Positions 22,459 to 39,751 are shown, counted from the stretch's first letter. The stretch: DNA of 64,000 bases from an uncultured Eubacteriales bacterium (GCA_902768795.1 CACXMS010000004.1:10978-74977); one strand, 5' to 3'. Notes: generated by a model from the letters alone, not told the origin. Translations and numbers: made by a program.

Positions 22459-24198
22459 ATGAAAGTCAGTCAGCTTTTGGGCGAACGGTTTAAGGAACGC
22501 GCGTTTGAGATCGAAAGTCAGAATCTTATGACGCGCGGCGGATATATGAAGCTCGTCGGCAACGGCATTTATTCGCTGTTCACGCCGACCAAGCGAATTC
22601 AGAACAAGATCGAACAGATCCTGCGTGAGGAAATGGACGCGATCGACGGACAGGAGGTCCTGTTCCCGGTCGTCATGCCCGCTTCGATCTGGCAGCAGTC
22701 CGGTCGCTGGAATTCGATCGGCAAGGAGCTGCTGCGATTCAAGGACCGCAGCGGCGCGGATATGGTTCTCGGCATGACGCACGAGGAGGCCGCGGTACAC
22801 ATGGCGATGAACGTTGCCGGCACGTATCAGAAGTACCCGTTCATGATCTATCAGATCCAGACCAAGTTCCGCGACGAGCCGCGCGCCCGCGGCGGTCTGA
22901 TCCGCGTCCGCGAATTCACGATGAAGGACGCTTATTCGTTCCACACCTCGCAGGAGGATCTGGAAGCATACTATCAGCGCGCTTACCGCGCTTATGAGCG
23001 CATCTATGCGCGCGCCGGCGTACCCGAGGTCGTCGCCGTCAAGTCCGACAGCGGCATGATGGGCGGCAAGGTCAGCCATGAATTCATGCTGCTCTGCGAC
23101 ATCGGCGAGGATTCGATCGTCACCTGCCCCGAATGCGGCTACCGTGCGAACATGGAAGCGGCCGAAACGCTCGTTTCGAACGAAAAGGGCGAAACGCCGC
23201 TGCCGCTCGAGGAAGTCTTTACCGGCGACGCCAAGACGATCGAAGACGTCTGCGCGCTTTTGAAGAGCGACGCGAAAAAGTCGTGCAAGGCCGTTGTGTA
23301 CCAGCGCAACGCGGACGACAGCTATGTGCTGATCTTCACGCGCGGCGATCTCGAAATCAACGAAACGAAGCTCACGAATTTCCTGAAGGCGGAAGTGCAC
23401 CCCGCCGCGGATATCGATCAGGCGAATCTTGCCGCGGGCAACATCGGTCCGGTGCGGCTCGAAACGAGCGCGACCGTTCTGTTCGACCGTTCGATTGCGG
23501 ACGCGGAGAACCTCGTTTGCGGCGCAAACCGCGCGGAATACCATTTCACCGGCTTCACGCCCGCGCGCGATCTGCCGGAAGACACCGAATACATCGATCT
23601 GTCCAAAACGCAGACCGGGTTCGAATGTCCGAATTGCCATCGGCACAGCTTAAAGGTCAGCCGCGGCATCGAGGTCGGCAACATCTTCCAGCTCGGCAAG
23701 CGCTATTCCGAAGCGATGGGCATGACCTACGACGATCCGAACGGCAACCGCGTCAACCCGATCATGGGCTGCTACGGCATCGGCGTCGGGCGATTGATCG
23801 CCTCCGTCTGCGAGGTGCGGCATGACGATTACGGCCCGATCTGGCCGATCACGATCGCGCCGTGGCAGGTCGAGGTCTGCGCGCTCCGCATCGACAACCC
23901 TGCCGTCCGGGAAGCCGCCGACCTGCTCTATCGGGAACTGACCGACGCCGGCGTCGAAGCGCTGTACGACGACCGCCCCGTCTCCGCGGGCGTGCTGTTC
24001 TCCGACGCGGACCTGCTCGGCGCGCCGATCCGTGTGGTCGTCAGCCCCAAGACGCTTTCCCGCGGCTGCTTCGAGCTTTCCGCGCGCGACAAGTCGTTCC
24101 GCGAGGACATCGACCCCAAATTCGCGGTCTCCGAAGTGTTCCGCAAGATTGCCGAGCTCACCGCCGCGATCAACGCGAAGGTGCCTGCGCGCCTGTAA
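22459..24198 (+). CDS. proS: Proline--tRNA ligase (bacterial type with INS editing domain)
   Basis: Track ORF trimmed to MKVSQLLGERFKE behind a GACGGAGG RBS. Class II motifs FRDEPRARGGLIRVREFTMKD and GCYGIGVGRL. Confidence 0.9.
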   Translation: MKVSQLLGERFKERAFEIESQNLMTRGGYMKLVGNGIYSLFTPTKRIQNKIEQILREEMDAIDGQEVLFPVVMPASIWQQSGRWNSIGKELLRFKDRSGADMVLGMTHEEAAVHMAMNVAGTYQKYPFMIYQIQTKFRDEPRARGGLIRVREFTMKDAYSFHTSQEDLEAYYQRAYRAYERIYARAGVPEVVAVKSDSGMMGGKVSHEFMLLCDIGEDSIVTCPECGYRANMEAAETLVSNEKGETPLPLEEVFTGDAKTIEDVCALLKSDAKKSCKAVVYQRNADDSYVLIFTRGDLEINETKLTNFLKAEVHPAADIDQANLAAGNIGPVRLETSATVLFDRSIADAENLVCGANRAEYHFTGFTPARDLPEDTEYIDLSKTQTGFECPNCHRHSLKVSRGIEVGNIFQLGKRYSEAMGMTYDDPNGNRVNPIMGCYGIGVGRLIASVCEVRHDDYGPIWPITIAPWQVEVCALRIDNPAVREAADLLYRELTDAGVEALYDDRPVSAGVLFSDADLLGAPIRVVVSPKTLSRGCFELSARDKSFREDIDPKFAVSEVFRKIAELTAAINAKVPARL

Positions 24199-24223
24199 AC
24201 ACATTCCCCCGTTTTCTTCCTCT

Positions 24224-24260
24224 GCACCGCTGCGGTTTTTGCCGGAAGCGGTGCTTTTTT
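24224..24260 (+). terminator. Rho-independent terminator after proS
   Basis: GCACCGC..GCGGTGC stem followed by TTTTTT. Confidence 0.75.
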
Positions 24261-24291
24261 ACAAAAATTTGAAACTTAACAAAAATTCTAA

Positions 24292-24320
24292 TTCCATTTT
24301 GGCGACGGATGTGTTATGAT
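24292..24320 (+). promoter_or_regulatory. Candidate glg operon promoter (extended -10)
   Basis: Weak -35 TTCCAT, 17 nt, TATGAT, with TG one base before the -10, in an AT-rich spacer. Confidence 0.35.
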
Positions 24321-24403
24321 ATTTATGGAAAAATGTTGAAGCAGTCCTGCGGCATTTTCCGGATTCCGCGCCAACGGAAAATTCACCATAATAAGAGGTC
24401 GAA

Positions 24404-26266
24404 ATGTCAAACTTGACGGAGCTGGAGCTCTACTATTTCAACGAGGGAACGTCAACGACGCCGTACAAGGCCCTCGGTTGTCACCGCGTAGAACAAAACG
24501 GAATCCCGATGTGGCGATTCTCCGTCTGGGCACCGAGCGCAAAGCGCGTCGCCGTCGTCGGAGATTGGAACAGCTGGAACGATACCGCCGATCTGATGAC
24601 GCCGATCGGAAGCACCGGCGTCTGGGAATGCTGCATCGGCATTGCCAGGGAGCAGATGCTCTATAAATACTCCATTCTCGGCGCGGATAACGTGACGGTC
24701 TGGAAGGCCGATCCCTACGCTGTGCGCGTCGAACCGAACGGCTCGGCCTCCATGGTATGGGAGTGCGGCGAATACCCCTGGACGGACGGAGAATGGCTGG
24801 AAAAGCAAACGAACCGGCACACGCAGCCGATGAACATTTACGAGGTGCATCTCGGCTCCTGGAAGAAAGGGCTTTCGTACCGCGAGCTCGGCGACGAGCT
24901 GGTCGATTACGCCGTCGATATGGGGTATTCCCACATCGAGGTCATGCCGCTGATGGCGTATCCTTACGGGCCGAGCTGGGGATACCAGGTGACCGGCTAC
25001 TACGCGCCGACCGCGCGTTACGGCACGCCGGACGAGCTCAAGTATCTCGTCAACCGCGCGCACGAAAAAGGGCTCGGCGTCATCATGGACTGGGTTCCGG
25101 CGCACTTTACGCGCGATGCGTACGGCCTTGCCCGGTTCGACGGAACGCCGCTGTACGAGCATCCCGATCCCCGCAAGTCCGATATGAAGCAGTGGGGCAC
25201 GCTGCTGTTCGACTACGGCCGGACGCAAGTGAAGAGCTTTTTGATCGGCAGCGCGGTCTACTGGCTGAAGGAGTTCCATTTCGACGGACTGCGCGTGGAC
25301 GCTGTTTCGTGTATGCTGTATCTCGATTACGGCCGCAACGACGGCGAATGGATCCCGAACTGCTTCGGCGGACGCGAAAATCTTGACGCGATCGCGCTGT
25401 TCAAGCGGCTCGGCGAGGTCATTCACGGTATGCCCGGCGGCAAGATGCTGATCGCCGAGGAGAGCACGGCGTTCCCGCACGTAACGGACCAGAACGGCGA
25501 TTCGCTCGGGTTCGATTACAAGTGGAACATGGGCTGGATGAACGATACCCTCTCCTATATGGGCATGGACTCGCTCTATCGCAAGTGGCACCATGACAAG
25601 CTGACGTTCTCCCTGATGTACGCGTTTTCCGAGCATTACATCCTGCCGTTCTCCCACGACGAAGTCGTCCACGGCAAGCTGTCGATGCTGAATAAGATGC
25701 CCGGCGATTACTGGCAGAAATTCGCGCAGCTCCGCCTTCTGTACGCCTATCAGTTCGCGCATCCGGGCAAAAAGCTCACGTTCATGGGCATGGAGCTCGG
25801 CCAGTTCATCGAATGGCGGTTCGACGATTCGCTCGACTGGCTGCTGCTCGAATATCCGAAGCATGTTGAAATGCAGCGTTTTGTACGCGAGCTGAACCAC
25901 TTCTATCACGATACGCCGGCGCTTTATGAGCGCGACGACGAGTGGCAGGGCTTTGACTGGGTCGTCGTCGACGACACGGTGCATTCGGTCTGCTCCTTCA
26001 TCCGGCGCGACAAGGCCGGAAACGTGCTGCTTTGCGCTTACAACTTTACGCCCGTCCCGTGGGACGATTACCGCATGGGCAGCGAGCGCGGCGGCGTTTA
26101 CACCGAAGTATTCAATACCGACGAGCCGCGCTTCGGCGGCACGAACAATTATCATAACGGCACGGTTTCTACTGTGAACGAACAGCAGGGCCGCTTCGCG
26201 CAGTCTGTTCATCTGAAACTACCGCCTTACGGCGCTGTTTATCTATCGTTCATCCCAAATCCATAA
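24404..26266 (+). CDS. glgB: 1,4-alpha-glucan branching enzyme
   Basis: 620 aa. GH13 motifs [32 protein letters not shown]. Confidence 0.95.
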
Positions 26267-26285
26267 AGGCGAAAAGGAGACTGCT

Positions 26286-27515
26286 ATGAAGAAAAAAATT
26301 GTTGCCATGCTGCTTGCGGGCGGCCAGGGCAGCCGTCTCGGCATCCTGACCTCTCACATGGCGAAGCCGGCCGTACCGTTCGGCGGAAAGTACCGCATCA
26401 TTGACTTTCCGCTTTCCAACTGCGTCAATTCCGACATCGACACCGTCGGCGTTTTGACGCAGTACCGGCCGCTTGCGTTGAACGCCTACCTCGGAACCGG
26501 CCAACACTGGGATCTCGACCGCAGCAGCGGCGGCGTCTTTGTGCTGCCTCCTTACATGACCGAAAAAGACGGCCGCTGGTACAGCGGAACCGCGAACGCG
26601 ATCTGGCAGAACCGCGAGTTCATCGATCAGTACGATGCGGAATACGTGCTGATTCTCTCGGGCGACCACATCTACAAGATGGACTACCATAAGATGCTGC
26701 AGTTCCACATCCAGAACCGCGCGGCGGCGACGATCGCGGTCTTTCGCGTACCGCTTGCCGAGGCGCACCGCTTTGGCATCATGAACACGGACGAAAAGAA
26801 CAACATCACTTCGTTCGAGGAAAAACCGAAAAACCCCAAGAGCGGCAACGCTTCGATGGGCATTTACATCTTCAACTGGAAAACGCTCCGCCGCTATATG
26901 GAGAAGGACGACGGCGATCCCGCTTCCGAAAACGACTTCGGCAAGAACATCATTCCCGCCATGCTGAACGCGGGCGAAAAGATGATCGCCTATCCGTTCG
27001 ACGGATACTGGAAAGACGTCGGAACGATCACGAGTCTCTGGGAAGCGAACATGGACATGCTCGGCAACCCGCCGGTGCTCGATCTGAACGATCCGAAATG
27101 GCGCATCTATACGCATAACCTCGCGCTGCCGCCGCACTATATGGACCGCACCGCAAAGGTCTCCGACAGTCTTGTGACCGAAGGAAGCGTCGTCCGCGGC
27201 GTTGTGAAGCATTCCGTGCTGTTCGCCGGCGCGCATGAGGACATCTATACCGAGATCACCGATTCCGTCGTGTTCCCGAACGCCATGATCGGCAAGAACT
27301 GCACCGTGAAGAAGGCGATCATCGGTGAAAACGTTGTGATCGGCGACGGCTGCACGATCGGCGGGCCGCTCCGCGAGGGCGAAACGGTCGACAACCGGCT
27401 GACGGACGATATTACCCTGATCGGCAACGATGTCACGATCCCCGCCGGAACCTATATTCCGCAGGGCGCCGTCGTCAACGCCGATACGCTCCATCTGTTC
27501 ACAAAGGAGGCCTGA
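26286..27515 (+). CDS. glgC: Glucose-1-phosphate adenylyltransferase
   Basis: 409 aa. [26 protein letters not shown]. Confidence 0.95.
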
Positions 27516-27518
27516 CGT

Positions 27519-28643
27519 ATGATCCACGATACCTTTGCTCTCATCTATACGGGCGACAACAACCCCCTGCTCCGCGAGTTGACGCTGTCCCGCTCCGTGG
27601 CAGCCGTACCGTTCGGCGGACGCTACCGCTGCATTGACTTTATCCTCAGCGATATCGTCAATTCCGGCATCAACAACGTCGGCGTGATCATGCAGAAGAA
27701 CTACCACTCCCTGATGGACCATCTCGGATCCGGCAAGGAATGGGACCTCAACCGCAAGCATGACGGTATGTTCATCCTCCCGCCCTTTATGACGAAGGAC
27801 AACACCGGCGTCTTCCGCGGCGACATCGAAGCGATCCATTCGGTCATCACCTATATCCGCCGCAGCCCGCAGAAATACGTGCTGTTCAGCGGCGCGCACA
27901 CGATCTTCAACACCACGTTTGAGGACATGCTGATTCACCACATCTCGACCGGCGCGGATATCACGATCATGTACAACAACGAACCGCATTTCTCCGCCGA
28001 GGATCAGAACCGCGACCTGCGGCTGATCATGCGGGAGGACGAACGGGTTCTGGAAATGGAGTGGAATCCTTACCGCCCGCGCACGAACGCGCGTTCGTGC
28101 GACGCGATGATCATGGAAAAGAAGCTTCTGGAGTACCTGATCGAAGAAGCGTACGCGCGCGGCGATTCCGACTTTACGCGCGATATCCTGCAGCGGCTCT
28201 GCGGCACGCTGAAGATTTTCGGCTGGCGCTACGACGGCTATGTGGCGCGGCTTGACTCGATCAACACCTACTATAAGTGCAGCATGGACATGCTGAACGT
28301 CAACTACGCGCGCGATCTCTACAAGCACGACACGCCGATCGTTACGAAGGTCAAGGATCAGCTCTCCGCCAAGTACGGCCCGAACGCGGACGTTTCCAAC
28401 TCGATGCTCGCGGACGGCTGCAACATTGACGGCGCAGTTTCCGATTCGATCCTGTTCCGCGGCGTCACCGTCGCCGAGGGCGCAAAGGTCACCAACAGCA
28501 TCCTGCTGCAGGGATCCACGGTCGGCGCGGGCGCCGTGCTCGACCATGTGATCTGCGACAAAAACTGCGTGATCCGGCCCGGCCGCTCGCTGATCGGCTA
28601 CGAAAACTTCCCGATCGTATTGAAAAAAGGTCAGACGGTCTGA
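27519..28643 (+). CDS. glgD: Glucose-1-phosphate adenylyltransferase regulatory subunit
   Basis: 374 aa paralogue of GlgC lacking the GGxGxR motif (VAAVPFGGRYRCIDF). Canonical position after glgC. Confidence 0.85.
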   Translation: MIHDTFALIYTGDNNPLLRELTLSRSVAAVPFGGRYRCIDFILSDIVNSGINNVGVIMQKNYHSLMDHLGSGKEWDLNRKHDGMFILPPFMTKDNTGVFRGDIEAIHSVITYIRRSPQKYVLFSGAHTIFNTTFEDMLIHHISTGADITIMYNNEPHFSAEDQNRDLRLIMREDERVLEMEWNPYRPRTNARSCDAMIMEKKLLEYLIEEAYARGDSDFTRDILQRLCGTLKIFGWRYDGYVARLDSINTYYKCSMDMLNVNYARDLYKHDTPIVTKVKDQLSAKYGPNADVSNSMLADGCNIDGAVSDSILFRGVTVAEGAKVTNSILLQGSTVGAGAVLDHVICDKNCVIRPGRSLIGYENFPIVLKKGQTV

Positions 28644-28672
28644 CCGTAAAACGCAACATAAAGGAGAACCGC

Positions 28673-30145
28673 ATGAAAGTACTGTTTTGTGCAAGCGAAT
28701 GCTTCCCGTTCGTGAAGACCGGCGGGCTTGCCGACGTTGTCGGTTCGCTTCCGAAGGAGCTTCTGAAACAGGACTGTGACGTCCGCGTCATGATCCCGAA
28801 ATACCGCGTGATCGACTGGTCGTATATTACCGCGATGGAGCACATCTGTCATTTCCAGCTCCCGTTCGGAGACGGCAGTGTTTTCTGCGGGATCGACTCG
28901 CTGGAATATGAGGGCGTTCGCTTCTATTTTATCGACAACCTTGCGATGTTCGGACACGACGGCGTTTACACGGGCGACGAGCAGGAGGGCTACCGCTATG
29001 CGTTCTTCTGCCGCGCAGTGCTCGACGCGCTGCCGAAAGTCGATTTCTTCCCCGACGTGATCCACTGCAACGACTGGCAGACCGGCCTGATTCCCGCGCT
29101 GCTGAAGATGCAGTATGCCAACGATCCGGATTACGCGAAGATCAAGACGGTCTACACGATCCACAACCTCCGGTTCCAGGGGCTCTACCGCTGGGATCGG
29201 ATCTCCTCCGTGCTGCATCTCGACGGTCGGTATTTCACGCCCGACGGGCTTGAATTCTACGGTCTGCTGTCGTTCATGAAGGGCGGTATCATCTACGCCG
29301 ACCGCATCACGACGGTCAGCCCGACGTATGCCCGGGAGATTTGCATGGAATACTACGGCGAACGGCTCGACGGCCTGCTCCGTGCGCGCAGCTACTCGCT
29401 GTCCGGCATTCTGAACGGCATCGACACGCAATCCTACAACCCGGCGACCGACCCCGCGCTGCCGGAGCATTACAGCATCCGCAACCCGCGCGTCAAAAAG
29501 TCCATCAAGACGGCGCTGCAAAAGGAGCTGGGGCTTGCCGAGCGCGACGTTCCGATGCTTTCGATCGTTTCACGTCTGACCGATCAGAAGGGGCTCGACC
29601 TGATCGCCTGCGTGCTGAACGAGATCCTCTCGCTCGACGTGCAGTTTGTGATCGTCGGTCTCGGCGAGCAGCGTTATACGGATATGCTGCGCGACGCGCA
29701 GCGCCGTCACCCCGGCGCGGTCGTGCTGTGCAGCGTGCTCGATGAAAAGCTCGCCCGCCGCGTTTACGCCGCGTCCGACCTGTACCTGATGCCGAGCCAG
29801 TTCGAGCCGTGCGGTCTGAGCCAGATGATCGCCATGCGGTACGGCACGATCCCCGTCGTGCGCGAAACCGGCGGCCTCAAGGATTCCGTTCTCCCGTACA
29901 ACAAGTACACCGACGAGGGCACGGGCTTCTGCTTTATGAACTACAACGCGCACGAGATGCTGTATCAGATCGAAGACGCCGTGCGCTACTGGCGCAACGA
30001 TCCCGCCATGTGGAACCGCCTCGTGCATCGCGCGATGAAGGAGGACTTCAGCTGGAAGGCCTCCGCAAAGAAATATCTTGCGCTCTATAAAGAAATGCTC
30101 GGCCTTTCCCCTCGCGCCCGCAAGAAGGCGCCTGTGCAGGCATGA
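28673..30145 (+). CDS. glgA: Glycogen synthase (ADP-glucose type)
   Basis: 490 aa. MKVLFCASECFPFVKTGGLADVVGSLP, PSQFEPCGLSQM. Confidence 0.95.
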   Translation: MKVLFCASECFPFVKTGGLADVVGSLPKELLKQDCDVRVMIPKYRVIDWSYITAMEHICHFQLPFGDGSVFCGIDSLEYEGVRFYFIDNLAMFGHDGVYTGDEQEGYRYAFFCRAVLDALPKVDFFPDVIHCNDWQTGLIPALLKMQYANDPDYAKIKTVYTIHNLRFQGLYRWDRISSVLHLDGRYFTPDGLEFYGLLSFMKGGIIYADRITTVSPTYAREICMEYYGERLDGLLRARSYSLSGILNGIDTQSYNPATDPALPEHYSIRNPRVKKSIKTALQKELGLAERDVPMLSIVSRLTDQKGLDLIACVLNEILSLDVQFVIVGLGEQRYTDMLRDAQRRHPGAVVLCSVLDEKLARRVYAASDLYLMPSQFEPCGLSQMIAMRYGTIPVVRETGGLKDSVLPYNKYTDEGTGFCFMNYNAHEMLYQIEDAVRYWRNDPAMWNRLVHRAMKEDFSWKASAKKYLALYKEMLGLSPRARKKAPVQA

Positions 30146-32034
30146 CGTTCTACGAAAAAATCATACAGGAACTGGAGAGGGCCGAACAGTCCCTCTCCAC
30201 GGTATATTCATTCGCCTTTCGCTTCACTGAGGAAGCGCTTTTCGAGTGGGAGGAGCAGGAACAGTTTTGCTCAATGACCTACGGAGAAGCGCAAAAGCGC
30301 ATTGAAGCCGCGACGGGCGCGCTCCATGCGCTGCTGACGGATTATCCGAAAGGCAGCCCGATCGGGCTGTATCTGCCGAACGGACCGGACTGGGTGATTG
30401 CTTTCTGGGCGATTCTGCGGTCCGGGTACCGACCGCTGCTGCTGAATACGATCGCCCCGAAAGAATTGGTCGAAGGATGCCTTCGGGAAGCCGGCGCATC
30501 GGTTTGCATCGGCGCCGAAGCGTTTGCAAACGTGCGCTGTCTTGCGCCGGACGCGCTGACCGGCGGCGACGGTTCCTATTGCGACTGGGCGGACGAAATC
30601 CTCCTCTGCACCTCCGGAACGACCGGCGCGCCGCGCCTGATCGCGTTTGACGGGAAAGCCGTTTGCGCGCAGATCCGCAACTCCGGGTTTGCGCTGCAGA
30701 AAAATCATTCCATCGCGTCCTTCGTGCACGGCAAGCTGAAGCTGCTTGCATTTTTACCGTTCTATCATATCTTCGGTCTGTCCGCCGTTCTGCTCTGGTT
30801 CTCCTGCTTCGGACGGACATTCGTTCTGCTGCCGTCGCTCTCTCCCGAAGCGATCGGCCGCGTCTGCCGTCAGCACGAGGTCACGCACATCTTCGCTCTG
30901 CCGGTCTTTTGGAACGCGGTCGCGGATCAGGTTCTGCGCGCTGCCAAACGCACCGGGCAATCGGAAAAGCTCGAACGCGGCATACGCCTCTCGCTCGCGC
31001 TTCAAAACGGGCCGATCCCTTCGCTCGGCCGCTTTCTCGCCCGTAAGCTCATGCGTTCCGTACAGGAACAGGCGCTCGGAACGGCCGTGCGGTTCTGTAT
31101 CTCGGGCGGCGGCGCTTTGCGTAACGATACGCTGCGCCTGATCAACGGAATCGGGTATCCGCTTTACAACGGCTACGGCATGACCGAGATCGGCATTGCC
31201 TCGGTCGAGCTTCGGCAATCCGCCAAAGCGCGGACGGAGGGTTCGATCGGTCAGCCGTTTCCCTCGATCCGGATCGATTGCTCCGGCGAAACGATGCGCG
31301 TATGCGGACGAACATGCTATACCGCCGAATACCGAAACGGCGAACGCATCCCGCACGACCCGATGGAATGGTTCGACACGCAGGACTGCATCCATCAGGA
31401 GGAAAACGGCTCGCTGTTTTTTGCGGGGCGCAGCGACGATATGCTCAACGGCGCGAACGGCGAACGCATCTCCCCCGCGCTGCTGGAATCCGCATTCGGA
31501 AGCCCGCTGATCGCGGCGCTGGCGGCCGTTTCCGAAAACGGCGAGCCCGTTCTGGTCGTCGAACCGAAGCAGCGCAACGCTTACGCGCTTGCCGCGCTGT
31601 CCGAGGAGCTGTATGAAAAAAACGCGGCGCTGCCCTCCGCGTACCGTGTCCGGAAGATCTACTTTTCTTTGGATCCGCTCCCGCTTGCGCTGACGCAAAA
31701 GGTGCAAAGCGGCGCGGTGCGCCGCGGCCTTGCGGACGGAACGCTGCGCGTAAAGGAAGCCGATCGAGCCGATGCACCTGTCGCGTCGGCATTTGACGCC
31801 GGACTGGAGGAAATCCTGCCGCGCGTGATCGCCGTTTTCCGGTCGCTCACCGGTTCGGAGGTTCTGCCCGACAGCCATTTTCGCTATGACCTCGGCGGCG
31901 ATTCGCTGACCTATTTTGCCCTCGTCGAACAGCTTTCCGGGGAGTTTCAGGTTACGATCGATCCCTCCGCCGGAACCGATCTCTCGACCCCGCGCGATTT
32001 TGCGATCTATATCTTAAAAGAAGGCGAACGGTAA
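30142..32034 (+). CDS. Stand-alone adenylation (ANL/AMP-binding) enzyme fused to a carrier-protein (phosphopantetheine) domain
   Basis: 630 aa. ATGA overlap with the glgA stop. LCTSGTTGAPR (A3), YNGYGMTEIG (A5), GRSDDMLNGANGERISP (A8). C-terminal DLGGDSLTYF carrier motif (Ser codon 31904-31906). Confidence 0.8.
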   Translation: MTFYEKIIQELERAEQSLSTVYSFAFRFTEEALFEWEEQEQFCSMTYGEAQKRIEAATGALHALLTDYPKGSPIGLYLPNGPDWVIAFWAILRSGYRPLLLNTIAPKELVEGCLREAGASVCIGAEAFANVRCLAPDALTGGDGSYCDWADEILLCTSGTTGAPRLIAFDGKAVCAQIRNSGFALQKNHSIASFVHGKLKLLAFLPFYHIFGLSAVLLWFSCFGRTFVLLPSLSPEAIGRVCRQHEVTHIFALPVFWNAVADQVLRAAKRTGQSEKLERGIRLSLALQNGPIPSLGRFLARKLMRSVQEQALGTAVRFCISGGGALRNDTLRLINGIGYPLYNGYGMTEIGIASVELRQSAKARTEGSIGQPFPSIRIDCSGETMRVCGRTCYTAEYRNGERIPHDPMEWFDTQDCIHQEENGSLFFAGRSDDMLNGANGERISPALLESAFGSPLIAALAAVSENGEPVLVVEPKQRNAYALAALSEELYEKNAALPSAYRVRKIYFSLDPLPLALTQKVQSGAVRRGLADGTLRVKEADRADAPVASAFDAGLEEILPRVIAVFRSLTGSEVLPDSHFRYDLGGDSLTYFALVEQLSGEFQVTIDPSAGTDLSTPRDFAIYILKEGER

Positions 32035-32061
32035 CGATCTGTTGAAAAAATGCGCTGAGAA

Positions 32062-32253
32062 CAGACTGGCAAGAATGGGCTTGGAAGCCGGTTTCTTCGC
32101 CCGAAGGCTGTACTGACGTTACGCCGAGAGCGAAAAACCGGCTAATTTTGCGGCAAATAATCGAAGAAAAGCGCGTTTGTGCGCTTTTCGTCCTTCAGGA
32201 ATTCTTTTCACATAGCTGCCGCAAAATGGTCCGGGCCCGTTATTGACGGTCTG
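32062..32253. repeat. MITE-like intergenic element, copy B (192 bp, with extra internal hairpin)
   Basis: Terminal inverted repeats: CAGACTGGCAAGAATGGGC on the left, reverse complement of the right end CAGACCGTCAATAACGGGC. Hairpin GAAAAGCGC/GCGCTTTTC. Extra stem 32087-32100 with 32130-32142. Right end overlaps the MFS stop codon. Confidence 0.7.
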
Positions 32254-33571
32254 CTGTTTGCAGCTTGCTTTTCGTAATCAGAAGATACCCGACCAGCGCG
32301 ACGATCACCAGGCCGAGAACGACAAGCGCCGCCAGAAAGATGTCCGCGCTCGGAAGGAACGAGGTCGTGCCGTCGCTGTTTACGATCTCCTCCGCGCCTT
32401 CGAGCACCGCCGCGCCGATCGCCGGACCGACAATGCCCGGAATCAATACCTGCGAAAGAATGCGAAGCCCCTGGAACCGGCCCGCCATGTGCTCCGGCGT
32501 ATGGTTGCGAAGCTGCGTGCCGAACACCGCCATGCCCGAAAGGTAGCCCGACATCATCAGCAGCGAGCCGATGAACACCGGGATTCGCATTCCGATCCCC
32601 TCGGCAGGAATGACCGCCGGAACCAGATAGAGCAGCACGAACCCGAGCGCAAGCATCGAAAGCGCGGGCAGTACGATCCGCCGGAACCCGTGCCGGTCCG
32701 TCAGCCGTCCGAAGAAGAAGGTTACGACCGCGGCAAGGATGATCGCCGGCGCCATGATCAGCACATAATCCGCCATGCCGAGCGTCTTTTCATAGTAAAT
32801 GATCAGATACGGCATATAGACCTGAATCGCCGTCGAAAAAACCATATAGGCAAGCATGGAAAGATACAGCTTCGGATTCTTTCCGACAACGTCCGGTCGG
32901 AACCCGTACAGGATCGTCGGGAAATACCCGAGGTTATCCGGATTTTTCACCGGCGCTTCCTCGACCAGGAAGAACCCGAGGACGCCGATCAGCAGCACAA
33001 GACCGCCGATGATCGCATAAATGACCGTCCAGCTCTCGGCCAGATCGAGGTTGAAGCCCATGAATCCCCCGAACACGACGAGGATCGAGATCAACGGCAT
33101 CATCGAGTTGATCCCTTCCGCCGCGCCGCGGTTCGTTTCGTCGGTCGAATCCGTCAGCCACGCGTTGAACGCCGCATCGTTTGCCGACGATCCGAAAAAC
33201 GTCATCACGCAGTCCATAATGATGACAAGCGTTACGCCGATGCTCGCCGCGCCGACCGTCGACCCGAACAGCGCGGAGATCACGTCGAGCCGGATCAGCG
33301 CAAAGCTCAGGATCGACACGCCCCACGCGATATAGCCGAAGCACATGAACACCTTGCGTTTGCCGAGCCGATCGGACAGCGCGCCCATCAGCACGGTCGT
33401 CACGGTCGCGGCGATCGCGCTCGCGGTGACCATCGTCGCAATCTCGGATGCGGACGCATGGAACATCTTGTAAATATAGACGTTGAAATACATGTTTTCC
33501 ACGACCCATGCGATCTGCCCGGTCAGCGAAAAGATGATCAGCGTCAACCAGAATTTCCGATTTTTCTTCAT
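32240..33571 (-). CDS. MFS transporter (substrate unknown)
   Basis: 443 aa, about 12 hydrophobic segments. MFS motif A GALSDRLGKRK. GAAGGAGGGGAG RBS. Confidence 0.8.
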   Translation of the reverse strand: MKKNRKFWLTLIIFSLTGQIAWVVENMYFNVYIYKMFHASASEIATMVTASAIAATVTTVLMGALSDRLGKRKVFMCFGYIAWGVSILSFALIRLDVISALFGSTVGAASIGVTLVIIMDCVMTFFGSSANDAAFNAWLTDSTDETNRGAAEGINSMMPLISILVVFGGFMGFNLDLAESWTVIYAIIGGLVLLIGVLGFFLVEEAPVKNPDNLGYFPTILYGFRPDVVGKNPKLYLSMLAYMVFSTAIQVYMPYLIIYYEKTLGMADYVLIMAPAIILAAVVTFFFGRLTDRHGFRRIVLPALSMLALGFVLLYLVPAVIPAEGIGMRIPVFIGSLLMMSGYLSGMAVFGTQLRNHTPEHMAGRFQGLRILSQVLIPGIVGPAIGAAVLEGAEEIVNSDGTTSFLPSADIFLAALVVLGLVIVALVGYLLITKSKLQTADRQ

Positions 33572-33731
33572 GCACTCCCCTCCTTCGGCGCGTCCGGACG
33601 GCGGACGCCTCTCCCCCGTTCGTTCTTTATCAGTATATCATATCCGACCCCGAAAGTAAAGAAACCGCGCCGGACCTGCGGCCTGACTTTTTTCGCGCCG
33701 ATTCCGTGGTGCTTTCCCGAAAAAGACGGTT

Positions 33732-33758
33732 TTAGCACTCTTTTTGTTTGAGTGCTAA
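33732..33758 (+). promoter_or_regulatory. CIRCE operator (HrcA binding site)
   Basis: Exact match to the consensus: TTAGCACTC, 9 nt, GAGTGCTAA. 136 nt upstream of hsp20. Confidence 0.9.
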
Positions 33759-33893
33759 ATGTTCACATTTGCATTACAATCGCAACAAACTTCCGTCAAA
33801 ATCGTGTGTTACGATACAGACGTCAAAAGAAGAGAGGGTCGATGGAATACCGGAGACCCGATCGGGAAAGAATAGCAACAGGAGGTTACGATC

Positions 33894-34355
33894 ATGTTTG
33901 AACTGAAGCCTTATCGCAAAAATGAATTGCACAACGCAATGTATTATGATCCGTTCCGTGAGATGGAGGAAATGGAGCGCCGCTTCATGCGCGATCCGTT
34001 CGCCATGTTTGACAGCAACGACCTTGCCATGTTCAAGACCGATATCTCAGACCGCGGCGACGCATATCTGCTCGAGACTGACCTGCCCGGTTTTGACAAG
34101 AAGGACATCCGCCTCGATCTGAACGGCGACACGCTGACGATCCGTGCCGAGCGGCATTCCGAATCGGAGCAGAAGGAGCACAAGGACAAATACCTGCGCG
34201 TCGAGCGTTCCTACGGTTCCTACAGCCGTGCATTTGACGTTTCTCTCATCGATACGGAGAACATCAAGGCGAAGTATGAGGACGGCGTTCTGAAGCTGAC
34301 GCTGCCGAAAAAGCAGAAGGTTGAGCCCGCAAAGCGCACGCTCGAAATCGAATAA
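33894..34355 (+). CDS. Hsp20/alpha-crystallin family small heat-shock protein
   Basis: 153 aa. DISDRGDAYLLETDLPGFDKKDI..GVLKLTLPK. AGGAGG RBS. Confidence 0.9.
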   Translation: MFELKPYRKNELHNAMYYDPFREMEEMERRFMRDPFAMFDSNDLAMFKTDISDRGDAYLLETDLPGFDKKDIRLDLNGDTLTIRAERHSESEQKEHKDKYLRVERSYGSYSRAFDVSLIDTENIKAKYEDGVLKLTLPKKQKVEPAKRTLEIE

Positions 34356-34414: not shown

Positions 34415-35431
34415 TTATTGATCGTCTGCGGCGGCTCCAATCGCCGCCTTGATTTTTTCGGTCAGGTTTGCATCCTGCATCCGATACGCCTGCATCAGGC
34501 ACGCCTTTACGGCATCGGCATTGGACGAACCGTGGCCCTTGACGATGAGCTTTTTACAGCCGAGCAGGACGCTGCCGCCGTAGCTGCGATAGTCCATGAA
34601 CCGCTTCTCCTCGTCGAACATCCGCTTCATCAGCAGCGCGCCGAGCTTGTAGATCGGGCGGGAATAGATGTCCTTTTTCAGCTTTTTCAGCATCTCGAGG
34701 CACGCGCCCTCGGTGGACTTGATCAGCACGTTGCCCGAAAAGCCGTCGCACACGACAAGATCGTACTTGCCGCCGAGCAGGTCGCGGCTTTCCATATTGC
34801 CGACAAAATGAATGCCCTCCAGGTTCTGCAGCACCGGATACGCTTCCTTCCGCAGCGCATCGCCCTTTTCGGCTTCCGCGCCGATGTTCAGCAGCGCCAC
34901 GCGCGGCTTCTCAATGCCGTACGCGCTTTCGAGGTACAAGCTGCCCATCAGGGCAAACTGCGTCAACAGCTTCACATTGACGTCCACATTGGCGCCGCTG
35001 TCGCACACGCCGACGATCCCGCCGGTCATGGTCGGCAGCAGCGGACAGAATGCAGGCCGCTTCACGCCGTGAATGCGACCGATCCGAAGCGTCGCCGCGG
35101 CAACGAGCGCGCCCGTTGAACCGACCGTTACAAGCCCGTGCAGGTTCTCATCGGTGCGGACAAGCTCCACCGCCTTCATCAGCGAGCTTTCGGGCTTCTT
35201 TTTGATCGCGGCTGTCGGGATTTCATCGCAGCCGATCACGTCCGGCGCATGCACGATCTTCAGCCGGTTTTTATCGTACGGCTTGCCGGAAAGCGCCTCA
35301 GTAAGCGTCTTTTCATCGCCCGTCAGAACCACCTCGAGATCAGGCGTTTCCTGCAGCGCAAGCAGCGCGCCGTTTACGTTTGCGTCGGGGCTGTGATCGC
35401 CGCCGAAACAGTCGAGCACCAAACGTACCAT
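34415..35431 (-). CDS. plsX: Phosphate acyltransferase (acyl-ACP:phosphate)
   Basis: 338 aa. LDCFGGDHSP start, VGSTGALVAAA, GHGSSNA. Confidence 0.9.
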   Translation of the reverse strand: MVRLVLDCFGGDHSPDANVNGALLALQETPDLEVVLTGDEKTLTEALSGKPYDKNRLKIVHAPDVIGCDEIPTAAIKKKPESSLMKAVELVRTDENLHGLVTVGSTGALVAAATLRIGRIHGVKRPAFCPLLPTMTGGIVGVCDSGANVDVNVKLLTQFALMGSLYLESAYGIEKPRVALLNIGAEAEKGDALRKEAYPVLQNLEGIHFVGNMESRDLLGGKYDLVVCDGFSGNVLIKSTEGACLEMLKKLKKDIYSRPIYKLGALLMKRMFDEEKRFMDYRSYGGSVLLGCKKLIVKGHGSSNADAVKACLMQAYRMQDANLTEKIKAAIGAAADDQ

Positions 35432-35432
35432 G

Positions 35433-36557
35433 TCAATCCTCCAGCTTTTTCACGAACGAGCGGCGACGCTTGTGCATCACCGTCTTAAACCGTTTCCACT
35501 GATTCTGGATCGCGTAGTTGTCCTCCAGATTCAAGTTCGTTTCCGCATACTCCACGCCGTCCTCCCGCAGCATTTTTTCGAGCGCCGCCGAGATTGCAAC
35601 GCTGATGCCGCGGTTTGCCCATGCCGGATCGATACCGATCAGGCCGAGGTCGATGATCTTCGGATGCTTGATCGCCCAGAGCAGCCGCACAATCGCCGCC
35701 GGCGTCAGGTGTCCGTGCGAGGGCTGTACGGCCTTTGCGATCGACGGGAAGCAGATGCCGAGGCAAACGATGTTGTCGTTCTCGTCGAGAAGGACTGCGA
35801 CATGATCGAGGTCGATGATCAGTCGGAAATTGTCGATCATCAGCTTCTTCATGCCTTCGGTGAACGGAACCGTTCCGTAAAGCTTTTCATACGACTTGTC
35901 GAGCAGTTCAAACAGTCCGTCCGCATACCGGTCGATAAAATCATTGACATTTTTCGCGGGACCGAAATGCAGGTTGTACCGCGCCATCAGCTTTTCGGTC
36001 ACGCGCGCCAACGATCCGTCGTTTTTTTCGGGCGCATAGATCTTGCTCTCCGTCCAGTCGACTTCCTTCTCGTATCCGCAGTTTTCGATCAGCCGCTGAT
36101 AGTACGGCGCGTTGTACTGTTCCTCAAACGTCGAAAGCTGATCGAAGCCCTCGATCAAAAGACCTTCGCGCTCGAGATCCGAAAAGCCGAGCGGCCCGCA
36201 GACCGTATCCATGCCCTTCTGCCGCGCCCAGTTTTCCACCGCGCTTAGCAGCGCGTCTGCGACTTCCTGATCGTCGATCGCGTCGAACCGCGTGAAACGC
36301 ACGCGCTTTTCCCGGTTCTTTTCGTTCGCGGATTTTTGCAGAATGCCCGAGATACGACCGACGATCCTGCCGTCGCGGTATGCGTTGAAATAAACCGCCT
36401 CGCAGATATCATTGTAGATATAATCCGCGCGGAAGATCTTTTTTTCATCGCCGTAAAGCGGCGGTACGAAGTACGGATTGTCCCGATACATCTTCAGCGG
36501 AAATTGCAGAAATTCCCGCTGTTCACGCTTTGTTTTGACCTCTTTGACCGTTACCAT
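35433..36557 (-). CDS. Uncharacterised GNAT-fold-like protein (~370-aa family)
   Basis: 374 aa. N-terminus KREQREFLQFPLKMYRDNPYFVPPL, typical of a conserved uncharacterised acyltransferase-like family. C-terminal half has a GNAT-like NRGISVAISAALEKML region. Call made from memory only. Confidence 0.45.
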   Translation of the reverse strand: MVTVKEVKTKREQREFLQFPLKMYRDNPYFVPPLYGDEKKIFRADYIYNDICEAVYFNAYRDGRIVGRISGILQKSANEKNREKRVRFTRFDAIDDQEVADALLSAVENWARQKGMDTVCGPLGFSDLEREGLLIEGFDQLSTFEEQYNAPYYQRLIENCGYEKEVDWTESKIYAPEKNDGSLARVTEKLMARYNLHFGPAKNVNDFIDRYADGLFELLDKSYEKLYGTVPFTEGMKKLMIDNFRLIIDLDHVAVLLDENDNIVCLGICFPSIAKAVQPSHGHLTPAAIVRLLWAIKHPKIIDLGLIGIDPAWANRGISVAISAALEKMLREDGVEYAETNLNLEDNYAIQNQWKRFKTVMHKRRRSFVKKLED

Positions 36558-36570
36558 GCGAAAACCCCGT

Positions 36571-37440
36571 TTATCTGTGCTTGGCGTGGAAGCAGATGCC
36601 GACGCCGTTCGGGCCGCAATGTCCGCCGGTCGTCGGATTGACCGGGACGATCATCAGGTCGATGTCCTCGCCGAATTTCACCTTCAGCATTCCCGCGACT
36701 TCGTTTGCAATCACCGGAGCGTCGGTATGACCGACGATCACGCGGTGTGCGCGCACATCCTCACCGAGCTCCTCGGTATATTGCAGCAGGCGGTTGATCG
36801 CGCGCTGACGGCCGCGCTCGGAACCGATCGAAACCATCTTGCCCTCGGAATTCATGTAGATGATCGGACGGACGCCGATCAGCGTGCCCATCATCGCGGC
36901 AAGGCCGGAAACGCGCCCGCTGTGCTTGAAAAACTTCAGATCGTCCGCGAAGAAATAGATCGCAAATTTATCGACCTCGGTCTTGGCCCATTCGAGGATC
37001 TGCTCGACGGGCTTGCCGGCCTTCACCATATCGCCGACCTCGAGCACGATCGCCAGACTCACGATCGTGATGCCCTTCGTGTCGATATCGTAGAACCTGC
37101 GCTCCGGATACTTTTCCCGCAGCTTTGCCACGGCCTGATCCATCGCGTCGAACGTCGCTGTCATCGCGCGGGAAAAATGGACATAGAGGATATCGTCGCC
37201 GTTTCTGAACACCGGTTCAAAGGCCTCGATGTATTTTTCGCAGCTGATCGCACTCGTATTCGGCAAAGCGCCCGCGCGAAGCTGATCGTAAAACGCCTTC
37301 ACGTCAAACACGTCGAAGTCCTCATACGGATAAACGGTCTTTCCGTCGATCGCATAAGGCATGCTGATCAGAGAATAGCCATACTCCTTCGCAATCTCCG
37401 GAGTAACGTCGCAGTCGGTGTCGGTAAACAGTTTCAGCAT
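36571..37440 (-). CDS. fakB: DegV-family fatty-acid-binding protein (FakB-type)
   Basis: 289 aa. LKLFTDTDCDVTPE, PNTSAIS, HCGPNGVGI motifs of DegV. Confidence 0.85.
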   Translation of the reverse strand: MLKLFTDTDCDVTPEIAKEYGYSLISMPYAIDGKTVYPYEDFDVFDVKAFYDQLRAGALPNTSAISCEKYIEAFEPVFRNGDDILYVHFSRAMTATFDAMDQAVAKLREKYPERRFYDIDTKGITIVSLAIVLEVGDMVKAGKPVEQILEWAKTEVDKFAIYFFADDLKFFKHSGRVSGLAAMMGTLIGVRPIIYMNSEGKMVSIGSERGRQRAINRLLQYTEELGEDVRAHRVIVGHTDAPVIANEVAGMLKVKFGEDIDLMIVPVNPTTGGHCGPNGVGICFHAKHR

Positions 37441-37450
37441 AAGACCCTCC

Positions 37451-39106
37451 TCATTCCAAAATCATGATATAATCGTAAATCGGCTGCCCGCCCTCGAGCA
37501 GAATAACCTCCGTCATCGGATGCGCGCTTTCGAGCGCCGCACGGATCGCTTCGGCCTCGTCCGGATCGGCGTTCTGACCGCAAACCAGCAGCAGAATTCC
37601 GAAATCGTCGGCTTCCAGCGCCTTTGCCAGCTGCAGCGCGGCTTCCTTCGCTTCGACCGCGTCCGAATAAATGACGCCGTTCGAGAACCCGATATAATCG
37701 CCCTCACGGACGGAAATGCCGTCGCGCTCCGTCGTGCGGCTTGCCTTGGAAACCGTTCCTTCCCGGACGCTCATCATAATCGAAACGGCGCTCTCCGTGA
37801 TCTGTTCCAGGTCCCCGGAAGCGGTGTCGAGCAGCGACAGCGCGGCATAGCACTCGGCGATGTTATGGCTCGGCATCACGGCGATGCGCGCCCCGTCGTA
37901 CAGCGACGCCGCCTGCTCCGCCGTCAGAATGATATTGCTGTTGTTCGGAAATACGAGGATCGAATCGGCGTCGATCGCGCGGAACGCGTTCAAAAAGCTC
38001 TCCGCGCTCGGATTCATGCTCTGCCCGCCGTCCACGACCTCGTCCGCACCGAGCGAAAGGAACGTTTCATGAATGCCCTTGCCCGCCGCCACCGCAACGA
38101 TACCCACGGCCTTATGCGGTTTCCGCTTGCTCGAATAATTGTTGCGGATCGTCGTTTCATGGTGCTGCAGCATCATGTTTTCGATCTTCATCGTCAAAAA
38201 CTCGCCGTACCGATGGCACTCGGCAAGCACCGTTTCGGGCGTCATCGTATGGATATGCACCTTCAATACGCTGCCGTCGCGGAACGCAACGACCGAATCG
38301 CCGTTGGCGATCAGCCAGTCGATCAGCGGCTTCTCGTCGAACGCTGCCACCGGCCCTACCTTTGCCGTCTGAAACCGCAGCAGAAACTCGGTGCAGAATC
38401 CGAATTCCAGTTCGGTGTCCTCGGTGAAGGAATCGAGATCGACCCGGGCCGCTTGCGACGCCGTGCCGCCGGCGGACGACTCGATTTCTTCGCCGCGCAG
38501 AGCGTTCTGCATGCCTTCGGCGATGTACACGAATCCCGCGCCGCCCGAATCGACGACCCCCGCTTCCCGCAAAACGTCGAGCAGCATCGGCGTGCGGTCG
38601 AGCGATGCGCGAAGCTCGGTCAAAAACAGCTCGAAATACTGCTCAAAGTCCGTTTCTTCGCTGATGCGGTCATTCGCGTAGCGCACCGCGTCGGAGTAAA
38701 CCGTCAGGATCGTTCCCTCGACCGGCGTCTGCACCGCGCTGTAGGACTCCTTGACGCCGCGCTCCAGCGCGCTCGCAAACGTGCGGATGTCCGCTTTCGT
38801 AACGCCCTCAAGCCCCTTGGAGATTCCTGCAAAGATGCGGGAAAGGATCACGCCCGAGTTGCCGCGCGCGCCGAGGAGCATGCCCCCGGCGATCCGGCTC
38901 GCCGTCGGCGCGAGGTCTTCCTCTTCCCTGCCTGCCACTGCGGAATAGCCGGCGTCGATCGTCATAAACATATTGTCCCCGGTGTCTCCGTCGGGAATCG
39001 GGAAAACGTTCAGCTCGTTGACGATGACACGATTGTTTTTCAGTCGTGCGGCGCCGCCCTCCACCATGTGGGCAAAGAGCGGGCCGTTCAAAAGTGTTGT
39101 CTCCAT
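37451..39106 (-). CDS. fakA: DAK2-domain protein (FakA/YloV-type fatty acid kinase catalytic subunit)
   Basis: Start trimmed to METTLLNG (GGAAGGGG RBS). FPIPDGDTGDNM Dak2 motif. About 550 aa, as for FakA/YloV. Confidence 0.8.
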   Translation of the reverse strand: METTLLNGPLFAHMVEGGAARLKNNRVIVNELNVFPIPDGDTGDNMFMTIDAGYSAVAGREEEDLAPTASRIAGGMLLGARGNSGVILSRIFAGISKGLEGVTKADIRTFASALERGVKESYSAVQTPVEGTILTVYSDAVRYANDRISEETDFEQYFELFLTELRASLDRTPMLLDVLREAGVVDSGGAGFVYIAEGMQNALRGEEIESSAGGTASQAARVDLDSFTEDTELEFGFCTEFLLRFQTAKVGPVAAFDEKPLIDWLIANGDSVVAFRDGSVLKVHIHTMTPETVLAECHRYGEFLTMKIENMMLQHHETTIRNNYSSKRKPHKAVGIVAVAAGKGIHETFLSLGADEVVDGGQSMNPSAESFLNAFRAIDADSILVFPNNSNIILTAEQAASLYDGARIAVMPSHNIAECYAALSLLDTASGDLEQITESAVSIMMSVREGTVSKASRTTERDGISVREGDYIGFSNGVIYSDAVEAKEAALQLAKALEADDFGILLLVCGQNADPDEAEAIRAALESAHPMTEVILLEGGQPIYDYIMILE

Positions 39107-39125
39107 ACAAACCCCTTCCGAATGA

Positions 39126-39707
39126 TTATGCAATAAAAGAAGTCACGCCGCTGCGAATCAGCAGCTTAACCTGCTTGGAAATCTCCTCCAGCGATTGCTG
39201 CATGCCGGCATTGACCCAATCCCGGTATACCGAAACGATGCCGCTCGTCAGAAAGTCTGCGTACAGCTTCGTGTACGGCCGTTTCGACGGCTCGACGCGC
39301 TTTCCGAGGAACCCGTCCACGCGCACCGAAATCAAAGCCGCAAGCTTGTCCAGTACGTGCGAGGTTTTGTTCTTCTTCAGCAGCGGCGTCGCCAGTTCGT
39401 CGTGCGCGTTGAATGCATTCGTAATCGCCTGCAAAAAGCCGAACGGATCCCCTTCGCAGCGGGAGAAATCCGACTCGTGCACCACGCCGTCAACCGTATG
39501 CACAAGCTCGTTTTCCAGCTCCTCCAGGATCGCGGAAACGCTCGGATAATAGTTATAAATCGTCTTTCGGTCAAGCGCCGCGGCCTGCGCGACGTCCGTC
39601 ACCGTGATATCCGCCGCATCCTTCTGCCCGAGCAGTCCGAGATACGCCTTGCGGATCGCAGCGCGTGTCCGCGGAATACGGCTGTCTGCTTTCCGTTTTC
39701 TTCTCAT
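39126..39707 (-). CDS. TetR/AcrR-family transcriptional regulator (DhaS-like)
   Basis: Start trimmed to MRRKRKAD behind an AGGAGG RBS. Helix-turn-helix ITVTDVAQAAALDRKTIYNYYPS. Confidence 0.85.
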   Translation of the reverse strand: MRRKRKADSRIPRTRAAIRKAYLGLLGQKDAADITVTDVAQAAALDRKTIYNYYPSVSAILEELENELVHTVDGVVHESDFSRCEGDPFGFLQAITNAFNAHDELATPLLKKNKTSHVLDKLAALISVRVDGFLGKRVEPSKRPYTKLYADFLTSGIVSVYRDWVNAGMQQSLEEISKQVKLLIRSGVTSFIA

Positions 39708-39751
39708 GCGATCCTCCTTTGCGCTTTTTGTCGATTTTTCCACATGTGTGT

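Follow-up and report, generated by a model that had tools for sequence, protein, structure and literature searches.

Why should a gene for an enzyme of the ANL superfamily, carrying its own carrier domain, form the last cistron of a bacterial glycogen operon, and what might its product do there? The question is raised by a 64,000-nucleotide stretch of DNA from an uncultured Eubacteriales bacterium (GCA_902768795.1 CACXMS010000004.1:10978-74977), here called the window, in which glgB, glgC, glgD and glgA are followed by a gene for a 630-aa protein with an ANL adenylation domain and a C-terminal phosphopantetheine carrier domain (the A-T gene; coordinates of this and the other features are given in Table 1). 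We propose that this protein is a self-loading fatty-acyl carrier, which would feed a PlsC-type lipid acyltransferase in trans and be expressed with the glycogen genes, an explanation to which we give an even chance of being right. Contigs of the same genome are numbered with C and loci of the wider family with L.

Domains, motifs and operon context of the A-T gene

Searches against Pfam bore out the open reading frame (ORF) that an earlier, sequence-only reading of the window had described, an ANL enzyme ending in a carrier domain with a DLGGDSL motif. The protein matched the AMP-binding family PF00501 (E 9e-43), with motifs A3, A5, A7 and A8 and the A10 lysine present, and the carrier family PF00550 (residues 561-624, E 3e-8), a match that includes DLGGDS588L. 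An AlphaFold2 model built on a 111-sequence alignment (mean pLDDT 93.6, pTM 0.89) was in keeping with a four-helix carrier domain bearing its serine in a (D)LGxDS motif, with helices at residues 547-570, 588-602 and 617-627. The best neighbours of the model in the PDB by Foldseek were MenE, feruloyl-CoA synthetase, 4-chlorobenzoate-CoA ligase (CBAL) and the A-PCP didomains of McyG, CAR and EntE-EntB, and the lowest root-mean-square deviations were to adenylate-bound ANL structures. These matches confirm the modelled A-T fold and are silent on the substrate.

The sequence-only reading had suggested that the A10 lysine, which completes the adenylation active site, was replaced by alanine, and alignment overturned this. 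In a phmmer alignment K520 (LDPLPLALTQK520V) pairs with K492 of CBAL (LDQLPKNALNK492V), which we take to be the A10 lysine of that enzyme. K520 is invariant in a 26-sequence family alignment, and lysine is found at this position in 110 of the 111 sequences of the larger one. The family consensus at A10 is the canonical K-V-x-R, that of the window's clade K-V-Q-S/N, and the local context is LTQK520VQSGAVRR. The lysine seemed to be lost because reading the motif in the SGK register placed S523-G-A there, three residues downstream of K520; that so small an error can mimic the loss of a catalytic lysine is a caution for the reading of motifs. Across the homologues H209, E349, D415, R430, K520 and S588 are kept in 110-111 of 111, and the ANL motifs are present and conserved (P-loop T157/S158/T160, E349 in GYGMTE, D415 and R430/D433). 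As a separate observation, the A3 P-loop is degenerate in about one third of the family (TSATSLKE vs TSGTTGxPK), the other catalytic residues still being conserved, and the A3 lysine is arginine (GAPR) in the window's protein.

As to the class of substrate, the histidine of motif A4 (H209, in LPFYHIFGL) is by sequence that of the acyl-CoA-synthetase (carboxylic-acid) type, and not the aspartate of amino-acid adenylation domains. Because of this residue, and because the protein scored 73 bits against the amino-acid adenylation model TIGR01733 (cut-off 317), it appears not to activate an amino acid. The best matches in NCBIfam, all weak, were to long-chain fatty-acid-CoA ligases and MenE; the Aas-type model NF005291 gave 33 bits against a cut-off of 1349, and NF005959 lay outside the 25 best families. 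Fatty acyl-AMP ligases (FAALs) are marked by a FAAL-specific insertion and a CoA-rejecting pocket (PMC8460268), and neither the 60 best sequence matches nor the 50 best fold matches in the PDB included a FAAL structure. NCBIfam, sequence and profile searches of the PDB and Foldseek gave no substrate call and returned generic ANL neighbours only (MenE, CBAL, feruloyl-CoA synthetase and 4CL). From its motifs the gene appears to encode a catalytically intact carboxylic-acid:carrier ligase.

The reading frame is full length in every species. Against its orthologues the A-T gene has a ratio of nonsynonymous to synonymous substitution rates (dN/dS) of 0.14-0.27, compared with 0.03-0.20 for the glg genes, with dS near saturation, and it is evolving 2-4 times faster than they are. 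These values indicate a gene maintained under purifying selection, under a looser constraint than that on the glg genes.

The upstream glgB-C-D-A genes and the ATGA overlap of the A-T gene with glgA were as the sequence-only reading had described them, each glg product matching its NCBIfam equivalog above cut-off, with proS upstream of glgB. The junction with glgA is an ATGA in five of the seven species in which it was read, the distance being 0 bp in the sixth and +3 bp in the seventh. A survey of the linkage found the glgB-C-D-A-A-T block kept in every glg-linked species examined (L003, L004, L005, L082, L093, L104, L106 and L108), down to 58% identity, while its outer flanks differ between species on both sides. 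A promoter scan called a promoter-like site before glgB (24258-24286) and none just before the A-T gene. On the 3' side, the region 32030-32245 folds better than shuffled sequences (-82 kcal/mol, z = -4.3) and contains a GC-rich hairpin which is likely, from its sequence and position, to be a bidirectional terminator ending the glg/A-T transcript; a simple terminator scan did not call it, and no Rfam family was found in 24150-34000. Given the conserved tight junction, the lack of a promoter-like site of its own and the 3' hairpin, the A-T gene is likely to be co-transcribed and translationally coupled with glgA. The convergent intergenic region itself (32035-32240) probably holds stacked terminators and could hold a small RNA.

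The sequence-only reading had noted that the window contains no glgP, which is correct, and had placed the A-T gene in the slot normally held by glgP, which now looks doubtful. In this genome glgP lies on another contig (C16:45715-47775, 929 bits). Among ten congeners without a glgA-linked A-T gene, glgP was not found in the ~1.4 kb downstream of glgA in any; of the four examined closely, two have parA/parB after glgA, one a protein kinase gene and one unidentified ORFs. Since glgP is elsewhere and never follows glgA in these congeners, which carry glgBCDA alone, the A-T gene did not displace it.

The wider family and the descent of the glg-linked clade

More than 450 homologues of ~640 aa share the identical A-T architecture (E 1e-104 to 1e-146 to family members) and are named only 'AMP-binding protein'. 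With one genome taken per species, at least 497 matching stretches were confirmed, mostly in gut and rumen Bacillota, the hosts of the family being gut and rumen Bacillota and Mycoplasmatota. Literature searches found no paper on the family. The flanks of 79 family loci were labelled with BLAST, clustering and Pfam. A PF01553 (PlsC/LPLAT) acyltransferase was found in the flanks of the A-T gene at 83 of 83 loci outside the window's clade, and in the operons read in detail (L084-L089) it stands directly downstream, as two genes or as one fused two-domain gene. A small PF00550 acyl carrier protein (ACP) and a PF04970 LRAT-type gene usually come next, and the operon often also includes a second, carrier-less ANL ligase (ANL2), an Sfp-type phosphopantetheinyl transferase (PPTase), an MFS_2 transporter and alpha/beta hydrolases. 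A distance of no more than 10 kb separates the A-T gene from FakA, PlsX and one or two DegV genes at ~50 of the 79 loci. In congeners (L084-L089) the full operon runs A-T, LPLAT, LPLAT, ANL2, ACP, LRAT, hydrolase, DegV, MFS_2, FakA. Genes of glycogen synthesis are within 10 kb at only 3 of ~80 other family loci and adjacent at none. By its gene content this set has the look of a system for lipid acylation that is Aas-like, dependent on a carrier and so far uncharacterised.

The window's clade has departed from this arrangement, in that PF01553, ACP and LRAT genes beside the A-T gene are absent in all of its glg-linked members. In an IQ-TREE tree of 89 A-T proteins, the glg-linked proteins are monophyletic (support 100) and are nested among LPLAT-linked members (support 98), namely those of L006 (Candidatus Pullichristensenella), L007, L008, L011-L013, L015 and L017. 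The operon-type A-T proteins of the same genus form the other major branch, being 34-37% identical, and the two types were not found together in any genome of the genus. A second tree, to which metagenomic relatives were added, has 18 clusters in the glg-linked clade (58-100% identity) and a sister lineage (P0020, P0022 and P0023; 57-61% identity, sister support 98-100) that is not glg-linked. On these trees the window's clade is a derived, 'orphan' branch of the A-T family; the ancestor that it shares with the sister lineage would already have left the LPLAT operon, the gene now riding two different host operons.

To look for the missing partners, the genome from which the window comes (1.91 Mb in 44 contigs, 90% complete) was searched with hidden Markov models (HMMs) built from the operon neighbours. 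These located an ANL2-type ligase on C8, an LPLAT on C6, a small ACP on C15 and an Sfp-type PPTase on C11. The locus with the closest ANL2, L006, is also that of the closest A-T protein from outside the clade. The C6 LPLAT has intact motifs (NHTWWMD for NHxxxxD, and FPEGR), and its secondary NCBIfam matches are Aas-type acyltransferases. Among the five glg-linked congeners, the C6-type LPLAT was present in four (73-81% identity) and the C8-type ANL2 in all five (80-89%). In four congeners without the A-T gene the LPLAT type was absent, and ANL2 was represented by one weak match of 37% only. This distribution fits a set of LPLAT, ANL2 and A-T genes that may have arrived together and still work together. 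On C15 (9709-11117), the ACP gene is followed by an ORF that, judged by sequence, resembles a class I/II aminotransferase, and then by a gene for a zinc-ribbon membrane protein.

Compared with the A-T/LPLAT operon of gut and rumen Firmicutes, then, the window's A-T protein is homologous (32-42% identity) and nested in the same tree, and homologues of other operon parts are present in its genome. The difference is that the operon is dissolved here, the A-T gene being a cistron of the glycogen operon, with no LRAT found.

According to the fatty-acyl carrier explanation, the ANL domain would adenylate an acid without an alpha-amino group, most likely a fatty acid, which would then be thioesterified onto the phosphopantetheine arm of the protein's own carrier domain at S588, the carrier having been made holo by the PPTase on C11. 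The resulting acyl-S-carrier would be the donor for a PlsC-type (LPLAT) enzyme acylating a membrane-type lipid. It would be a natural donor, because PlsC-family enzymes of Gram-positive bacteria take acyl-ACP. As to history, the A-T gene appears ordinarily to head a lipid-acylation operon; in the window's lineage this operon would have been broken up, with the A-T gene becoming the last, translationally coupled cistron of glgBCDA, and the second ligase (C8), LPLAT (C6), small ACP (C15) and PPTase (C11) would now act in trans. The link with glycogen would be one of expression (co-transcription) and not of chemistry. The domains, the intact motifs, the setting of the family, the tree, the tight and conserved junction with glgA and the purifying selection were observed directly; the fatty-acid substrate, the LPLAT acceptor in trans and the co-transcription we infer.

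Several points weigh against this explanation. Sequence and fold searches put the enzyme equidistant from many ANL subfamilies. The operon HMMs found no LRAT homologue in the genome, no acyltransferase is adjacent anywhere in the glg-linked clade, and the acceptor step rests on genes in trans. The co-occurrence of LPLAT and ANL2 with the A-T gene is confounded by descent, one subclade counting as one evolutionary event. A functional tie to glucan metabolism could underlie the conserved ATGA coupling to glgA, and the MBOAT-DHHW context of the sister lineage, described below, may mean that the acceptor is another one throughout the orphan clade.

Known systems and competing explanations

The alternative that survives best, which we still consider unlikely, is a Dlt-like donor, where an MBOAT/DHHW pair (DltB/DltD-like) would move the acyl group across the membrane onto teichoic acid, a wall polysaccharide or a glucan. 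DltB, as is well established, is an MBOAT supplied with its substrate by a carrier protein, and DltA/DltC resembles the A-T protein in that an adenylating enzyme loads a carrier serving a membrane acyltransferase. In the sister lineage the A-T gene is followed, on one strand, by genes for a ~190-aa lipoprotein, an MBOAT protein and a DHHW protein, and the window's genome has its own lipoprotein-MBOAT-DHHW cluster (C16:14078-17237), the MBOAT of which shares 47% identity with its counterpart in the sister lineage. An MBOAT gene together with a DltD-like gene in the same operon was found only in the sister lineage (L105 and L107) and not in the window, which agrees with the sequence-only reading that no MBOAT partner is nearby, all four MBOAT genes of the genome lying outside the window. 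Moreover, a gap of 115-150 bp separates the A-T and lipoprotein genes in the sister lineage, an MBOAT gene is within reach at one (L036) of ~95 other loci, and MBOAT genes are so numerous (four per genome) that chance adjacency is plausible. Orthologues of the C16 MBOAT (72-80% identity) occur in congeners without any A-T gene, and it was rejected as a co-inherited partner because they are present regardless of that gene.

Elsewhere on C16 the genome also carries an entire Dlt-like operon, including a ligase of the amino-acid type and a carrier of its own. Its ligase scored 332 bits against TIGR01733 (cut-off 317) and fell below the DltA cut-offs, so that its amino acid may be one other than D-alanine; the sequence of the MBOAT gene in this operon includes a short masked stretch (N). 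The A-T protein differs from DltA/DltC in its fused carrier and in its A4 histidine, with which it fails TIGR01733, whereas DltA has an amino-acid-type A domain and DltC is separate. The hypothesis of the sequence-only reading that the protein modifies a glucan or envelope polymer has no direct support in its own genome, which keeps a separate Dlt-like operon, although the position of the sister-lineage gene upstream of lipoprotein-MBOAT-DHHW speaks for it. The loci of the sister lineage (L105 661-5797, L107 2072-7266 and L109) are preceded by a large ORF for which no domain is recorded, and their A-T, lipoprotein, MBOAT and DHHW genes are possibly a fused-DltA/C-style system.

That the coupling to glgA reflects glycogen chemistry, the A-T protein acylating glycogen, a glucan primer or an associated molecule, we regard as quite improbable. 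The glgBCDA-A-T block (ATGA or a gap of no more than 3 bp) does hold together in seven of seven species, to 58% identity, while its outer flanks vary. But the block lacks a transferase for such a step, glg genes do not adjoin the A-T gene in the sister lineage or the wider family, congeners manage with glgBCDA alone, and the A-T gene has the faster rate of evolution noted above. More specifically, acyl groups from the carrier might be ester-linked to an alpha-glucan or its primer to give an acylated storage polysaccharide, by a transferase encoded elsewhere (for instance by one of the MBOAT/DHHW pairs, or the C6 acyltransferase). The nearest analogy is with the acylated methylglucose polysaccharides of mycobacteria, and we would give this version very little credence.

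We also think it highly unlikely that the gene is a functionless remnant of a broken operon, kept only by read-through from glgA. Its operon partners are gone from the neighbourhood, its dN/dS is above that of the neighbouring genes, and the arginine in A3 could be read in the same way. However, between species, at saturated dS, its dN/dS is that of a gene under purifying selection; no species has a truncated frame, and all catalytic residues and the carrier serine are retained.

The other hypothesis of the sequence-only reading, an acyl-ACP-synthetase-like lipid enzyme working with the convergent MFS transporter, fared differently in its two parts. The lipid enzyme agrees with the PlsC, ACP, LRAT, FakA, DegV and PlsX context of the family, but the MFS partner is not conserved. 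The MFS gene lplT is the partner of aas in E. coli (PMC11416262), and an MFS_2 gene is often part of the wider family's operon. The window's MFS gene, in contrast, is convergent, has no LplT-family match in NCBIfam and is unrelated to the MFS_2 cluster of the family, and no other family member has a homologue of it beside the A-T gene, the 80%-identical orthologue included. It was rejected as a partner because it is not conserved beside the orthologues, and a pair of the Aas/LplT type at this locus seems to us scarcely credible.

Aas nonetheless offers the closest studied parallel to the logic of the family: a fatty acid is activated by an ANL ligase, loaded on a phosphopantetheine carrier and passed to a lysolipid by a PlsC-type acyltransferase, steps that would be matched here, and both the A-T protein and the C6 LPLAT have weak Aas-type NCBIfam matches. 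The differences are that in Aas the acyltransferase and the ligase are one protein that uses a borrowed free ACP, whereas the A-T protein has the carrier fused, contains no PF01553 domain and leaves the acyltransferases separate, in the window not even linked; it also scores far below the cut-off of every Aas model. Aas/LplT has been described as a Gram-negative system (PMC11416262), and the A-T family belongs to the Bacillota and Mycoplasmatota.

Lastly, the protein has the same didomain architecture and fold as the loading A-ACP and FAAL-ACP modules of polyketide synthases (PKS) and nonribosomal peptide synthetases (NRPS) and the A-PCP of CAR (PDB 4r0m, 5msw), but the absence of any condensation domain from the genome led to rejection of the NRPS reading, and none had been noticed nearby in the sequence-only reading either; no gene of PKS/NRPS type was noticed among the neighbours of the A-T gene, the ketosynthase and reductase families not having been searched genome-wide.

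Downstream neighbours and wider meaning

Flanking ORFs were labelled as six-frame ORFs by HMMs and BLAST, and not by longest-ORF or codon-bias gene calling. An 814-aa ORF antisense to glgC/glgD (26250-28694, minus strand) is of the kind favoured by simple gene callers and is a codon-bias artefact of a 57% GC genome.

Beyond the MFS gene, and after a gene for an Hsp20 protein, lies a tetR-fakA-degV-plsX operon, which reflects the lipid context typical of the wider A-T family. Between degV and plsX it contains a gene for a 374-aa protein (35433-36557, minus strand) which matched GNAT weakly (PF00583, E 2e-4) and had no counterpart in NCBIfam or, by sequence, in the PDB. Orthologues of this protein (86-87%) are found in the equivalent operon of L005 and L092, and a homologue (49% identical) is encoded divergently just upstream of the A-T gene in L015. 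The fatty-acid kinase set of the genome is unusually rich for 1.9 Mb, with three FakA paralogues and five DegV (FakB) genes (C13:23611-26328, C1:17156-18841 and, on C4, window positions 37451-39133).

The sequence-only reading had found no acyltransferase nearby. None is adjacent, but a VTT/PlsC fusion is encoded further downstream; it was rejected as a partner of the A-T protein because no homologue of it lies near other family members.

Table 1. Position and strand of the features discussed; entries without a contig name are window positions
Feature	Coordinates	Strand	Remarks
Host operon glgB-glgC-glgD-glgA	24404-30145	+	A-T gene is the fifth cistron
glgB	24404-26266	+	NCBIfam equivalog above cut-off
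glgC	26286-27515	+	NCBIfam equivalog above cut-off
glgD	27519-28643	+	NCBIfam equivalog above cut-off
glgA	28673-30145	+	NCBIfam equivalog above cut-off
ATGA overlap	30142-30145	+	glgA stop TGA, A-T start ATG
A-T didomain gene, 630 aa	30142-32034	+	ANL adenylation domain and C-terminal phosphopantetheine carrier domain (Pfam)
H209 codon, motif A4	30766-30768	+	Pairs with CBAL PLYH motif; 111/111
K520 codon (AAG), A10 catalytic lysine	31699-31701	+	Aligned with CBAL K492; codon checked
Carrier (PP-binding) domain, residues 561-624	31822-32013	+	PF00550
Attachment serine S588 codon	31903-31905	+	Codon checked; S588 in 111/111 homologues
GC-rich hairpin AAAAGCGCG-TTTGT-GCGCTTTT	32167-32188		In 205-bp convergent intergenic region 3' of A-T gene
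MFS transporter, convergent	32240-33571	-	MFS_1 match
tetR-fakA-degV(fakB)-374-aa GNAT-like-plsX operon	34415-39743	-	2.4 kb downstream of A-T gene
VTT/DedA (PF09335), PlsC-type (PF01553) and Cys-rich C-terminal fusion, 621 aa	42434-44299	-	10.4 kb from A-T gene
LPLAT	C6:78227-79138		252 bits to operon acyltransferase HMM; presumed housekeeping PlsC on C1, 113 bits
ANL2-type second ligase	C8:25192-26703		47% identical to ANL2 of L006, its closest homologue
Sfp-type PPTase	C11:4479-5087
Small ACP, 77 aa	C15:9709-9942
Dlt-like operon: ligase, 84-aa carrier, MBOAT, DltD-like	C16:35864-40243	-

The A-T family is large and seemingly unstudied, and the locus in the window is a derived, dissolved variant of its usual arrangement. 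It suggests that a gene of the ligase-carrier type can be separated from its operon and yet be maintained, under purifying selection, as a passenger in an unrelated one, its expression here probably being tied to glycogen synthesis. Should the family be a carrier-dependent, Aas-like acylation route, Gram-positive gut bacteria would have in it, next to FakAB/PlsX, another means of building external fatty acids into lipids.

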